A DNA stretch of 64,000 bases, taken from NCBI GenBank assembly GCA_003661965.1, contig QMXD01000002.1, positions 2,377 to 66,376 of the forward strand, written 5' to 3'. This document shows, one piece after another, positions 53,096 to 58,321 of the stretch. Within the stretch, counting starts at the first letter, position 1. Every line of letters begins with the position of its first letter. The notes under the pieces were generated by a model. That model was not told where the DNA came from. It saw nothing but the letters and a program-made list of their open reading frames with translations, and searched no databases. The position numbers and the translations under genes were made by a program. The DNA is from Candidatus Hecatellales archaeon. Lineage in GTDB: Archaea; Thermoproteota; Bathyarchaeia; Hecatellales; Hecatellaceae.

Positions 53096-53851
53096 TTAGA
53101 TTTCAGGGACCTCCTCCCTAAGAAAACCTATTATCTCTTCCCTGAACCTTATAAACTGGCTGCTAAGCTTGTTTCTAGGTCTCTCCAAGCCAATAAATAT
53201 CTCTTTTTTAACCTTTGCTGGTCTTCTTGTTAAAACAAGAACTCTGTCAGCTAGATAAACTGCCTCCTCAACATTATGGGTTACAAGTATGGTTGTCTTT
53301 TTTAGTTTTTCATGGATAGAGTAAAGCTCCTTATGCATTATCCATCTTGTTTGTGCATCTAGGTCTCCAAAAGGTTCATCCATCAAAATTATTGAGGGGT
53401 TTACAGCTAAAGCCCTTGCAATAGCAACCCTTTTACGCATCCCACCTGAAAGCTGATGTGGATAGTAAGATTTAAAGTTCTCCAAGCCGACAAGCCTAAC
53501 AACATCCTCCACAATTTTAGGGTTGTAGTTTCCCCTAACCTCCAAACCAAATTTTATGTTATCCCAAACATTCCTCCAAGGAAATAAGGCTTCCTCCTGA
53601 AAAACAAACCCTATCCTAATCTTTTTAGGGTTTGGTGTTTCACCTTCAACCCTAACCCTCCCAGAGGAGGGCTTTTCAAGTCCAGCTATAATCCTTAGTA
53701 AGGTTGTTTTCCCACATCCTGAAGGCCCAACAAAACATAAAAATTCTCCATCATAAACCTTAAAGGAAATGTTATCTAAAACCTGAAGCCTTTCACCGTT
53801 AGGGTTAACAAAAAACTTTGAAACTTTTTCAACCTCAACCTTATATTTCAT
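53096..53851 (-). CDS. ABC transporter ATP-binding protein, NitT/TauT (nitrate/sulfonate/bicarbonate) family
   Basis: GPSGCGKTT, LSGGMRKRVAIARAL, ILMDEPFGDLD. Confidence 0.8.
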   Translation of the reverse strand: MKYKVEVEKVSKFFVNPNGERLQVLDNISFKVYDGEFLCFVGPSGCGKTTLLRIIAGLEKPSSGRVRVEGETPNPKKIRIGFVFQEEALFPWRNVWDNIKFGLEVRGNYNPKIVEDVVRLVGLENFKSYYPHQLSGGMRKRVAIARALAVNPSIILMDEPFGDLDAQTRWIMHKELYSIHEKLKKTTILVTHNVEEAVYLADRVLVLTRRPAKVKKEIFIGLERPRNKLSSQFIRFREEIIGFLREEVPEI

Positions 53852-54666
53852 AGGGTTACCTCTCTACGCCACCTAAAAACTCTTTTTTCAACCCTTAGAA
53901 AGGTTTCATTCATAAGAAGCCCAATAATACCTATCAAAACCATACCAACAATCATACCTGAAACGTTTAAAAGTTCACCATATTTTAGGATTAGCCAGCC
54001 TAAACCAGCCATCTCCCCACCAATCATTTCAGCAGCAACAATACACATCCACCCAACACCCAAACCAATCCTCATACCTGCAAAAACCTCTGGTAAAGCA
54101 TTTGAAAAAACAGTTTTAACCACAATAGTTTTTTTATCAGCACCAAAAACCTTAGCAACATCGATAAGGGTAGGATTTACAGTTTGAACACCAGCCATAG
54201 TGTTAAGTAGGATAGGGAAAAAGGCTCCAAGCCAAATAATAAGCATATATCTAGCACAACCCGTTAAAAGAATTATTGCTAAAGGTATCCATGCGATTGG
54301 AGGTATAAACCTTAAAGGTTCAAGTATAGACCTAACAGAACCGTATGCCACCCTTTTTAAACCCATAACCAAACCTAAAGGTATACCTGTAACCACAGCT
54401 AAACCAAAACCTAAGAGTACACGTGAAACACTTGCAACAATATGGGTTGTTAGACTTATCCCTTCAACATCACCCTTTAAAAGCAGAATAAGAAAAGCCT
54501 CCCAAACATCTAGTGGGTTTGGAAAAAACGGTGAAGAAATGGTTATGGATAAAATTTCCCAGAGAAAAAGGAATATTGTGAGGGAAACAAAATTATTCAA
54601 AAACGTTTTATAACTTTTCCCCAAAAACTTTGAAGCCATATTTTTCCCTAACCTAAGATTTTTCAA
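53848..54666 (-). CDS. ABC transporter permease, NitT/TauT family
   Basis: Six-TM permease with the EAA-like region of binding-protein-dependent transporters. Confidence 0.7.
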   Translation of the reverse strand: MKNLRLGKNMASKFLGKSYKTFLNNFVSLTIFLFLWEILSITISSPFFPNPLDVWEAFLILLLKGDVEGISLTTHIVASVSRVLLGFGLAVVTGIPLGLVMGLKRVAYGSVRSILEPLRFIPPIAWIPLAIILLTGCARYMLIIWLGAFFPILLNTMAGVQTVNPTLIDVAKVFGADKKTIVVKTVFSNALPEVFAGMRIGLGVGWMCIVAAEMIGGEMAGLGWLILKYGELLNVSGMIVGMVLIGIIGLLMNETFLRVEKRVFRWRREVTL

Positions 54667-55636
54667 CCTCAGCTAGAAGTTTTGTGTTAACAAGGCTTTC
54701 CACAAACCTATCAACATCAGAAATATCTCTAGCAGAAACTTTTCCTTGTTCTATAAGGAAGGGAACAAAAATTTTTATGCTTTTAACGTTTACATGGTAA
54801 TCCCAAACCATCCTACCCCAACATTCATCAACAACGTTTAAGGGTTTCCCAGTCATCTCCGAAAAAATTTTTTTGGCTTCTTCAGGGTTTTCCCTAATAA
54901 ACCTCATAGCCTTAACATGAACCCTAACAAGCTTTTTAGCTATTTCAGGTTTTTCCTTTAAAAGCTTCCCAGAAACATAAAAAACACAACATTGATGGTT
55001 AGGTAGAATATCGTGAGAAGTATAAATTATATGTCCAATCTTTTTTATAACAGCCTCAGCACAAAAAGGCTCCCAATCAATATACGCATCAATTTCACCC
55101 CTCCCTAAAAGCAAAGGTAAATCTGAAAACTTGTAATGTTTAACATTCATCCTAAGATTAAACCTTTCTTCAACCATCCTAATCATACAGTCTTGAATAG
55201 ACCCTAAACCAGGTGTCCCCACAGTTTTTCCATCAAGCTCAAAAACGTTTTTTATCTCTGGTTTTGCCACTATAGCTGAACCTTCAAGGTTTGCTGAAGC
55301 CACCACAACAAGGTTTGCACCTTTTGCTTTTGCTATTATTGCAGGTACAATTCCAACATATCCAGCGTCAAGCTCACCAGCCTTAAAAGCCATCATTTCA
55401 GGCATACCGTAAAGATACTCCATTCTTACTGGTTTTATACCCTCCTCCTCATACCAACCCTTATAGTAGGCTACAAAAAAGGCTAAATGGTGAATGTCTG
55501 TGGAAATATAGCCTATCCTAACAGGAGTTAGCTTTTCAGCCTCCCTTTTAACCTCAAAAACCATAAAATATCCAAGAATGGAAAAAAGAAGTATACCTAT
55601 AGCTAGTCCAACCATAACCTTCCTTTTATCCAACAT
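54653..55636 (-). CDS. ABC transporter substrate-binding protein, NMT1/THI5-like (SsuA/TauA/NrtA family)
   Basis: N-terminal TM/signal anchor, then a periplasmic binding-protein type-II fold. It is operonic with the NitT/TauT permease and ATPase. Confidence 0.65.
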   Translation of the reverse strand: MLDKRKVMVGLAIGILLFSILGYFMVFEVKREAEKLTPVRIGYISTDIHHLAFFVAYYKGWYEEEGIKPVRMEYLYGMPEMMAFKAGELDAGYVGIVPAIIAKAKGANLVVVASANLEGSAIVAKPEIKNVFELDGKTVGTPGLGSIQDCMIRMVEERFNLRMNVKHYKFSDLPLLLGRGEIDAYIDWEPFCAEAVIKKIGHIIYTSHDILPNHQCCVFYVSGKLLKEKPEIAKKLVRVHVKAMRFIRENPEEAKKIFSEMTGKPLNVVDECWGRMVWDYHVNVKSIKIFVPFLIEQGKVSARDISDVDRFVESLVNTKLLAEVEKS

Positions 55637-56289: not shown

Positions 56290-56345
56290 CCTTTAGAAGC
56301 AATCAATTTTCCACTTTTATTAACATTTATTTCTGCGGTTTGGTG

Positions 56346-58321
56346 GTGAAAAATAGGTAAAAATAAAAGTTTTGTTAAAACTGTTTGTCCAAGAGACTGT
56401 TACGATACATGTTTTATTCTTGCTTTAAAGAAAAATGGAAAAATAATTGGTGTTAAAGGTAACCCTGAAAACCCTATTACAGACGGTTTTCTCTGTCCAA
56501 GAGGATTAAAAGACCATGAAAGAACCTACAGCCCCCAAAGAGTTTTATATCCACACATTAGAGACGGAAAAAAACCTTATGGTGGCTTTAAAAGGGTATC
56601 ATGGAGTAAAGCCCTAAACCTTATCGTTTCAAAGCTAAAAAACACACTTAAAAAATACGGCTCAAAAAAGGTTCTCCACCTAGAGTACGCTGGAAACATG
56701 GGGTTTTTCACATGGTATATGGCACAAAGAATATGGTATGCTATAGGAGCAACAAAAACAGACTACAGTATATGTAGCAGGTCTGGACATGAAGCCATAA
56801 GCCTACACTACGGTTTAAGCTATGGAACCCAACCTGAAGAAATCCCAAAAATGAGGTTGATAGTTTTTTGGGGGTTTTAATGCTGCTGTAAGCTCCCCAC
56901 ACCAGTGGCATCTAACCCTGAAGGCTAAAAGAAAAGGCTGTAAAATTGTTGTGGTAGACCCTAGAAAAACCATTACGGCTGAAAAAGCTGATTTATGGGT
57001 TCGGTTAAAACCAGAAACAGATGTTGCTTTTGTTTATGGTGTTGCTAGATGTCTGATAAAAAACGGTATGGTTGACCATAAGTTTATTGGTAGATGGACT
57101 TATGGTTTTGAAGAGTTTAGGAGGGAAGCCTTAAAATGGTCTCCCACTAGAGTTGAAAGGTATACTGGTGTAGGCTGGGAGACCATTAAAAAGTTTTGTG
57201 AAATGTATTGGAGTTTAAAGCCTAACCTTATAATGGTTGGTTTAGGTCTCCAGAAAAGTTTTTGTGGTGCTGAGGCTGTTAGAGCTGTTTCCCTTCTACC
57301 AGCCCTAATAGGTCTTCATAGAGGCTTCTACTACAGTAACAATCAAGGCTGGAACCTAAACCTTAAACTTTTAACTGGTGAAAGTTTAACACGCAAAAGG
57401 ATTCACACGGTTAGCCAAGTCTCCCTAGGGAAACTTTTAGAGAAAGGCGAGTTTAAGTTTGTATACATCTACAACATGAATCCTGCTGTTTCTCTCCCAA
57501 ACCAAGCCTCGGTTAGGAAAGGTCTTTTAAGAGAGGATGTTTTTGTTGTTGTTCATGAAACCCACTGGACTGAAACAGCCAAACATGCTGATGTTGTTTT
57601 ACCAGCCCCAACCTACCTAGAAAAAGAGGACATAGTGGTTTCCTACAGCCACCCATACACAAGAAAATCTTTAAGGGCTATAAAGCCTCTAGGCGAAAGC
57701 AAAGACGAGTTATGGGTTTCAAAACAAATAGCTAAAAAGCTTAAACTAAAAAACAGATGGCTATATGAGAATCCATGGAAGACTATAGAAAAAGTTCTAG
57801 GAAAAAACCTTACAGAAAAAATAAGGGGAGGAAAAACCGTAAAAATAGATGTAAAACCAAAGAAGGAGTATCAAACACCATCAGGAAAAATAGAGTTTTA
57901 TTCTAGGAGAGCTAAAAAGCTAGGCTACAATCCCTTACCCATCCAACCAAAAACCAAAAGAAAAAACTGGTTTATTCTTCTTAGCAGTTCCCTCCCCACC
58001 TACACCCACACACAATTCCAAGAAGTTTATGGTTTTATACCTCCAATAGCACACATAAACCCTAAAGATGCAGAAAAACACGGAATAAAAAACGGAGACA
58101 TTTTAGTTCTCTCCAATAGGCTTGGAAAAATAAGGCTAAAAGCCATAATAACAGACAAGGTTCCACAAGGAGTTTTATGGACTCCTAAACATGGTTTAGA
58201 CCTAAACAAAAAACCAAAAAACCTGATAACCCCAGACCACACCCAAAAAATAGGTGGAGGACCAATTTTTAACTCAACCCTAGTTAAAATAGGATGCGGG
58301 GGAGGGGATTTGAACCCCTGA
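56346..58321 (+). pseudogene. Molybdopterin oxidoreductase (MopB/DMSO-reductase superfamily) gene, disrupted
   Basis: One frame (56350..56880) encodes (K)IGKNKSFVKTVCPRDCYDTCF...GFLCPRG... (N-terminal 4Fe-4S Cys cluster) and ends at ...MRLIVFWGF*. The continuation NAAVSSPHQWHLTLKAKRKGCKIVVVDPRKTITAEKADLW... is in the -1 frame (track ORF 56951..58321). This implies a single extra T in the run GGGGGTTTTAATG near 56875. No ATG/GTG/TTG exists between the upstream TGA (56347) and the Cys motif. A GTG at 56346 (MKN...) would read MKNKSFVKTVCP if a ~10-bp duplication-like insert (aggtaaaaat) were removed. Confidence 0.6.

Follow-up and report, generated by a model that had tools for sequence, protein, structure and literature searches.

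Whether a gene that is split by a frameshift and lacks any recognizable start codon should be regarded as a decaying relic, or as a working gene with an unusual mode of initiation, is the question raised by a molybdopterin oxidoreductase (MopB) gene of a Candidatus Hecatellales archaeon. The gene lies in a stretch of 64,000 nucleotides (nt) of contig QMXD01000002.1 (assembly GCA_003661965.1, positions 2,377 to 66,376, forward strand), hereafter the window, to whose first letter all coordinates below refer. Hecatellales are an order of Bathyarchaeia, and their metagenome-assembled genomes (MAGs) have so far been recovered from eastern Pacific geothermal sites (PMC9635834). As suggested by our comparative analysis, the missing start is shared by two species and has been retained under selection, the frameshift occurs in this assembly alone, and the best reading of the locus, judged from its sequence, is that MopB is a cytoplasmic, Cys-liganded molybdopterin oxidoreductase of about 650 amino acids (aa) whose gene is functional in this species.

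The MopB gene occupies two reading frames on the plus strand. Frame 1 runs from 56350 (KIGKNKSFVKTVCPRDCYDTCF...MRLIVFWGF; Cys-frame reading KIGKNKSFVKTVCPRDC...LIVFWGF) and ends at TAA 56878-56880, and frame 2 resumes with NAAVSSPHQW... (NAAVSSPHQWHL...) and closes at TGA 58319-58321. Removal of one T within 56875-56878 joins the two into a 656-aa product with continuous Pfam matches, which bears out the initial annotation's view of a single gene split by an extra T. The joined product matches PF04879 at residues 8-61 (44.3 bits, cut-off 22.7), PF00384 at residues 64-463 as a single match that crosses the junction at residue 176 (169.4 bits, cut-off 24) and PF01568 at residues 560-643 (61.9 bits, cut-off 26.8). 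The N-terminal segment in frame 1 (56353-56877) includes the 4Fe-4S motif C-x2-C-x3-C at 56386-56412, and the frame that encodes it is referred to here as the Cys frame. The C-terminal segment in frame 2 (56879-58321) comprises the molybdopterin and dinucleotide-binding domains and is 100% identical to the metagenomic protein P0001.

The initial annotation was also right that no canonical start is in frame with the Cys motif: following TGA 56347-56349, 116 codons of the Cys frame pass without an ATG, GTG or TTG. The GTG at 56346 belongs to a different frame, one base behind, to which the Cys frame is +1, and opens a four-codon mini-open reading frame (mini-ORF), GTG AAA AAT AGG TAA (56346-56360, plus strand). 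This 5' region is identical in three assemblies of the window's species (species A). A sister species (species B, the P0002 cluster, 72% aa identity) carries a syntenic locus in four assemblies, with a collinear layout and no indel. The start region of species A reads GTT TGG TGG TGA AAA ATA GGT AAA AAT AAA AGT TTT GTT AAA ACT GTT TGT and that of species B reads CTT GGG TGA TGA AGG GTA AGT AAA AAT AAA AAT TTT ATT AGA GTT GTT TGT; neither contains a canonical start in the Cys frame ahead of the cluster motif. Both species do have an out-of-frame start codon (GTG in A, ATG in B) at the same position, followed by three codons and then TAA, so that the mini-ORF ATG AAG GGT AAG TAA of species B aligns with that of species A. 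Species A and B co-occur in the metagenome assemblies ERZ1742239 and ERZ27227320, each with the syntenic locus.

Since the start is missing in seven independent assemblies of two species, it is not a sequencing error. The earlier proposal that both lesions might be homopolymer errors therefore fails for the start and survives for the frameshift, where the extra T is absent in two conspecific assemblies. A tandem-like insert of about 10 bp had likewise been postulated behind the GTG; the spacing is exactly the same in the sister species, so that any insertion predates the split of A and B. As a recent event the insert was rejected, its 10-nt units matching at 7/10 positions in A and 5/10 in B with identical spacing.

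Selection on the gene was assessed by the ratio of non-synonymous to synonymous substitution rates (dN/dS, Nei-Gojobori). Comparison of A with B yielded 0.125 over 654 codons of the whole gene (dS about 1.4) and 0.16 over the 116 codons ahead of the first in-frame canonical start in A, with a non-synonymous deficit in those 116 codons of binomial p = 1.5e-8. Within the eleven codons for VCPRDCYDTCF, five synonymous and no non-synonymous changes separate the two species. The low dN/dS implies that the N-terminal part has been translated in the Cys frame for most or all of the time since the A/B split. Taken together, these sequence comparisons indicate that the absence of a canonical start is a genuine, conserved and selected feature older than that split.

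These values bear directly on the initial interpretation, which saw in MopB a pseudogene and in its surroundings an assimilatory locus in decay, for nitrate or another oxyanion; loss of the start and then the frameshift would be successive inactivating lesions. The window copy does carry two lesions, drift has moved its stop codon into a transfer RNA (tRNA) gene, and frameshifted or truncated copies of the family exist in other MAGs. Selection has nevertheless persisted after the start anomaly arose, with dN/dS of 0.125 at saturated dS since that lesion, which makes a species-level pseudogene untenable. The orthologues are intact, as the initial annotation had recommended checking: the frame is open in two conspecific assemblies, which lack the frameshift, and in A as well as B the ORF stays open for about 650 codons. 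The gene shows no secondary lesions, falls far short of the cut-offs of nitrate-reductase models and has no conserved link to the transporter. Thus, we consider the pseudogene interpretation highly improbable and, at the level of the species, largely refuted.

The mid-gene frameshift has a different distribution. It is caused by a single additional T within 56875-56878 (context GTTTTTTGGGGGTTTTAATG), and the resulting T4 run turns the TTT AAT of the conspecifics into TTT TAA (56875-56880, plus strand). The protein search match P0001 (540 aa, 100% identical) runs unbroken across the junction (LIVFWGFNAAVSS); two metagenome contigs encode it, which come from separate samples and were built with different assemblers (ERZ1742239 and ERZ27227320). 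Over 15-21 kb the conspecific contigs (L026, L027 and L136) share 99.84-99.87% identity with the window, and they read GGGGGTTTAAT at the site where the window reads GGGGGTTTTAAT. Across 53673-58379 the extra T is the sole difference between the window and its conspecifics, and the window copy shows no secondary damage. Over the approximately 44 kb compared, about 60-80 single-nucleotide polymorphisms (SNPs) and four 1-nt homopolymer indels separate the window from the conspecific strains; the indels lie at 28150 (A6 vs A7), 43061 (intergenic), 56875 and 58380 (between tRNAs), and the two conspecific assemblies agree with each other at all four sites. The indel at 28150 changes the last few codons of a CCG-domain gene. 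With the conspecifics intact and no other change in the window copy, the frameshift does not represent gene decay; a consensus or assembly error and a very recent strain mutation are about equally likely. Either way, the conspecific sequences indicate that the species has an intact MopB reading frame at this site.

How translation of MopB begins is then the remaining part of the question. The reading that we favour, to which we would give about an even chance, is that a functional cytoplasmic MopB is begun at a non-canonical codon behind a normal Shine-Dalgarno (SD) site. The ribosome would bind the SD-like sequence GGTGGTGA (56342-56349, plus strand), within which lie both GTG 56346-56348 and the TGA bounding the Cys frame on its upstream side, and would initiate at the AUA at 56353 (ATA, 56353-56355, plus strand), yielding M-G-K-N-K-S-F-V-K-T-V-C-P-R-D-C. 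The GTG at 56346 would then be no start but the interior of the SD motif. The proposed ATA stands in the Cys frame, 11 codons before the first Cys, and AUA is put forward as the candidate start codon.

Evidence for such a site comes from the other genes of the window, about ten of which begin with GGTGA, 3-7 nt and then ATG or TTG. The neighbouring binding-protein gene (start at 55636, minus strand) carries GGTGAaaaATG, with GGTGA at 55644 (minus strand) and a spacing of 3 nt, and the ATA of MopB follows its GGTGA by exactly the same 3 nt, as SD-led initiation would have it. This recurrence at gene starts indicates that GGTGA is a working SD motif in this genome. No canonical start in any frame is found 3-10 nt after the MopB SD. 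Two listed ORF starts, GTG 27259 and GTG 53051 (minus strand), also sit inside GGTGA, and the codons 5 nt downstream of the motif, TTG 27268 and ATG 53042, are better placed.

Rare non-canonical starts are known in prokaryotes, such as the AUU of infC, and translation table 11 allows AUA, AUC, AUU and CUG. Typically, a good SD lies at working distance from an AUH codon where orthologues have AUG, and the fit to such cases is plausible for the ATA of MopB. The known examples are bacterial and were established experimentally, however, and the candidate codons of species B, GTA or AGG, fall outside the usual near-cognate set.

Several further points weigh against a start at ATA. Species B has GGGTGAT at the aligned place and its GGTGA lies 3 nt further upstream, which brings AGG to 3 nt and GTA to 6 nt. 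The codon aligned with ATA is this GTA, which is not a single-mismatch relative of AUG, AGG being the alternative; the putative start is thus not conserved in kind between A and B, and ATA/GTA is also what a plain Ile/Val replacement would look like. Among the searches made, the start-less feature is carried by two species only. The window frameshift may be real, in which case this strain would have a freshly inactivated copy. According to a 2021 review (PMC8211752), neither initiation outside AUG, GUG and UUG nor +1 frameshifting has been demonstrated in Archaea, where a single -1 frameshift is the only one demonstrated.

The searches for further start-less relatives covered proteins as well as DNA. 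A full-length protein search returned only P0001 and P0002 above 62% identity, a scan of genome contigs for the start-less clade gave nothing closer than 59%, a DNA-pattern scan of metagenomes for YSPQRVLYP retrieved only the contig L028 again together with soil MopBs of about 30% identity, and a protein search with the N-terminal part alone found no further start-less member of the clade. The other homologues inspected (20 genome loci and 4 metagenome loci) all begin conventionally, with ATG, GTG or TTG placed 7-10 codons ahead of the first Cys. Four of the relatives, P0025, P0027, P0041 and P0031 (loci L029, L031, L032 and L033), are publicly called from an internal ATG just past the Cys motif. 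They were considered as instances of the same phenomenon and rejected, an ordinary in-frame TTG, GTG or ATG being present; their lack of the Fe4S4 domain is a choice of the gene caller, with usable starts available at those 7-10 codons.

A second gene of the window presents the same anomaly. The class-I glutamine amidotransferase (GATase) ORF at 18870-19472 (plus strand) has no in-frame canonical start for 86 codons, and its Pfam domain begins at ORF residue 19. Its start region (18883-18902, plus strand) consists of the SD sequence GGGAGGT at 18883-18889, a spacer of 10 nt and ATC at 18900-18902. A GATase without canonical start was found in six assemblies (the window, with L135 and L138-L142 compared), and in seven assemblies, including a 98%-identical relative, (A/G)GGAGGT or GGGGGT is followed by ATC 10 nt on. 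This ATC aligns exactly with the Met of orthologues (IRRILVLNN vs MQEILVLNN and MREILVLNN), so that the resemblance to known rare starts is clear for the GATase. Public gene callers have rendered the protein as 94, 114 or 197 aa, the 197-aa call starting at CTG; P0243 (NCBI RLG92689.1, DRO36_00600, Candidatus Hecatellales archaeon) is identical to the window ORF read from CTG 18879.

The GATase is of particular value for weighing a programmed +1 frameshift, by which Hecatellales would keep at least MopB through a conserved shift at the UAA of the four-codon leader ORF, a reading that appears clearly unlikely. Translation would start at GTG 56346 (ATG in B), proceed for three codons and shift by +1 at the stop into the Cys frame, at AGG-UAA-A in A or AAG-UAA-A in B, with the product M-K-N-R-K-N-K-S-F-V-K-T-V-C; by extension, the window's private UUU-UAA-U site could likewise be read through. 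The canonical start, the three sense codons and the TAA do occupy identical aligned positions in A and B with the long ORF in +1, which amounts to a conserved shift site with a 0-frame stop and a +1 continuation, from two lineages only. At UUU-UAA, moreover, the tRNA could pair again without mismatch after a +1 shift. An SD-like sequence lies just upstream of the stop, as it does in bacterial prfB, which encodes release factor 2 (RF2). The likeness extends to shifting of the prfB and Euplotes type in general, where a sense codon is followed by an in-frame stop, the ORF continues in +1 and an SD-like sequence is near, and AAG-UAA-A of species B resembles the AAA-UAA-A motif of Euplotes (PMC4759687).

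The resemblance is nevertheless incomplete, in that the MopB leader has no codon on which the P-site tRNA could pair again after the shift (neither AGG to GGU nor AAG to AGU allows it), the distance from SD to shift site is not fixed but differs between A and B, and the site is only four codons from the start. The GTG is simply part of the SD motif GGTGA, the same artefact being seen at 27259 and 53051, and an SD cannot serve to place a start codon with which it shares nucleotides. Folding of the RNA at 56340-56420 revealed no structure beyond shuffled controls (z = 0.17) and hence no predicted stimulatory hairpin, and no cellular +1 frameshift is known in Archaea (PMC8211752). The GATase of the window also has an out-of-frame GTG (18881), which opens a mini-ORF of its own, GTG GGA GGT TAG, to which the gene is +1. 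Two conspecific strains, however, have GTA in place of this GTG; the same SNP makes an in-frame TAG just upstream, and no canonical start remains there near the GATase N-terminus in any frame. A frameshift cannot explain the GATase in those strains, and with that route excluded there the MopB case tilts towards SD-led non-canonical initiation.

Some other unconventional start is rather unlikely, although less so than a frameshift. Examples are a leaderless mRNA whose 5' end lies at or close to AUA/GUA, ribosomes that reinitiate once past the mini-ORF, or a shortened protein begun at a different near-cognate codon, for which GTT/ATT four codons before the first Cys is a candidate. The region 18-27 nt upstream of the GTG/ATG contains AT-rich, TATA-like elements, A and B share a conserved block, TAACATTT, at positions -25 to -18 relative to that codon (56321-56328 in the window), and several window genes look leaderless. 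Promoter positions cannot be fixed from sequence, however, and leaderless initiation normally requires a 5'-terminal AUG; the strong SD, too, points to a transcript with a leader. TAACAT was tried as a promoter motif and rejected, as it is not enriched in the window (65 sites seen vs 68.6 expected).

Some further explanations were discarded, an archaeal (bulge-helix-bulge) intron among them. Reading of TGA 56347 as selenocysteine or by readthrough is of no help, because the upstream in-frame stretch back to the stop of the preceding regulator gene is also without a start. Transcriptional slippage was dismissed since the only runs are A5 and G3, which are too short for it. A spliceosomal-like GTAAGT...TAG intron in the sister species would remove 26 nt, by which the frame is not restored.

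PF04879, PF00384 and PF01568 occur in order and all above gathering scores, which identifies the product as a catalytic subunit of the MopB (DMSO-reductase) superfamily, and the N-terminal cluster motif is VCPRDCYDTC...C(P)RG. A putative protein ligand to Mo/W is the Cys of SICSRSGHEA, which falls on the metal-binding Cys of 7bkb_D and 2vpw_A when the sequences are aligned; directly after it, in the 7bkb_D alignment, stands Ser where formate dehydrogenases have His. Among solved structures, the closest are the Fdh subunit of 7bkb (198 bits), PsrA 2vpw, HDCR FdhF, FdhH and acetylene hydratase. Catalytic subunits of the cytoplasmic FdhA/FdhF and PsrA/PhsA types (7bkb_D, 1aa6, 7qv7_S, 2vpw, 2e7z) share the same three-domain layout of an N-terminal 4Fe-4S Cys motif, a molybdopterin domain and a dinucleotide-binding domain, but the window MopB reaches only 150-200 bits against any solved structure.

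None of the NCBIfam equivalogs, including NasC, NasA, NapA, NarG, Fdh-alpha and PhsA, came near its cut-off. Alignment of the repaired protein to the MopB subfamilies, which the initial annotation had called for, thus gave no assignment to nitrate reductases; for the assimilatory enzyme, NF047855 (NasC) scored 183.6 (cut-off 1100) and NF041323 scored 135.9 (cut-off 1000). Formate dehydrogenase alpha (TIGR01591) reached 296.2 (cut-off 666.25), and the active-site pair is Cys-Ser, not (Sec/Cys)-His. Thiosulfate/polysulfide reductase PhsA/PsrA reached 208.2 (cut-off 694), and no twin-arginine (Tat) signal is present. With only 11-13 residues ahead of the Cys motif, the predicted product is too short at its N-terminus to carry a twin-arginine leader, which argues for a cytoplasmic enzyme. 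The family is widespread in Bathyarchaeia, Asgard archaea, Thermoproteota, Methanomethylicia and Desulfobacterales, where it goes under generic names.

These results have consequences for annotation: neither the label of a decaying pseudogene nor that of a nitrate-assimilation relic is appropriate for the MopB gene. Gene callers cut the protein to 540 or 632 aa and thereby lose the iron-sulfur domain, and they also shorten relatives with ordinary GTG/TTG starts. Two genes in a 64-kb window, about 2 of some 57, are either kept under selection or intact across many assemblies without ATG, GTG or TTG, and MopB and the GATase form a testable pair of loci for archaeal non-canonical initiation or early +1 frameshifting. 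If the doubtful +1 shift at the MopB leader were true, it would be without precedent as a cellular +1 recoding event in Archaea. The weaker version, routine starts at AUA, AUC or GUA behind strong SD sites in Hecatellales, would if true be the first comparative evidence for archaeal initiation outside AUG/GUG/UUG.

The surroundings of MopB had contributed to the assimilatory interpretation. A NitT/TauT-family ATP-binding cassette (ABC) transporter occupies 53096-55636 (minus strand) and comprises a binding protein (54653-55636), a permease (53848-54666) and an ATPase (53096-53851), whose Pfam matches (NMT1/NMT1_2, BPD_transp_1 and ABC_tran) identify it as an importer of that family. Substrate-specific NCBIfam models for it were all below cut-off (SsuA_fam 161.5 vs 163.5, ntrB 126.9 vs 209, TauC 140 vs 342), as were all the SaoX/P/A models. 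The flanks of 30 other loci with this MopB contained no NMT1 binding protein, matching permease or helix-turn-helix (HTH)/PrpR_N regulator, and the contexts of four further MopB relatives are unrelated to the locus in the window. Linkage to the transporter and regulator is confined to species A and B and hence lends no support to an assimilatory nitrate locus.

Both the transporter and the HTH regulator had been described as divergent upstream genes. This is correct for the transporter, on the minus strand; the HTH_3/PrpR_N-like regulator gene (55762-56289, plus strand; PF01381 and PF06506; 175 aa as called in conspecific contigs) is directly upstream of MopB on the same strand, 57 nt before GTG 56346, and is kept in the sister species. 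Its ORF shares the reading frame of the MopB Cys frame, the two being separated by TAA 56287-56289, 19 sense codons and TGA 56347-56349. The shared frame is probably a coincidence, as the sister species carries a gene in between. That gene, a 107-aa cupin gene (L028/L034/L035, approximately 7534-7857 in L035), is not present in the window's species.

N-terminal fragments of the MopB family in other MAGs (P0248, P0253, P0258 and P0260) turn out of frame near residues 165-195; the search that yielded them returned only short proteins, and the clustering at 185-204 aa may reflect the length of the query. P0260 goes out of frame just before YWGFN, near the frameshift site of the window.

An exact-sequence look-up of the V-ATPase E protein gave no hit. 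An Rfam search of the whole window found only four tRNAs, and no riboswitch or recoding element. Two of these genes follow MopB on the minus strand, tRNA-Leu(CAG) at 58292-58380 (ARAGORN; 58295-58379 by Rfam) and tRNA-Val(CAC) at 58390-58465 (ARAGORN and Rfam). As initially reported, the 3' end of the MopB ORF runs in antisense into the 3' part of tRNA-Leu(CAG), by 27 nt according to Rfam and 30 nt according to ARAGORN. The overlap occurs only in the window's species, the MopB of the sister species stopping 31 nt short of the tRNA, and it encodes a short, harmless C-terminal tail of MopB.

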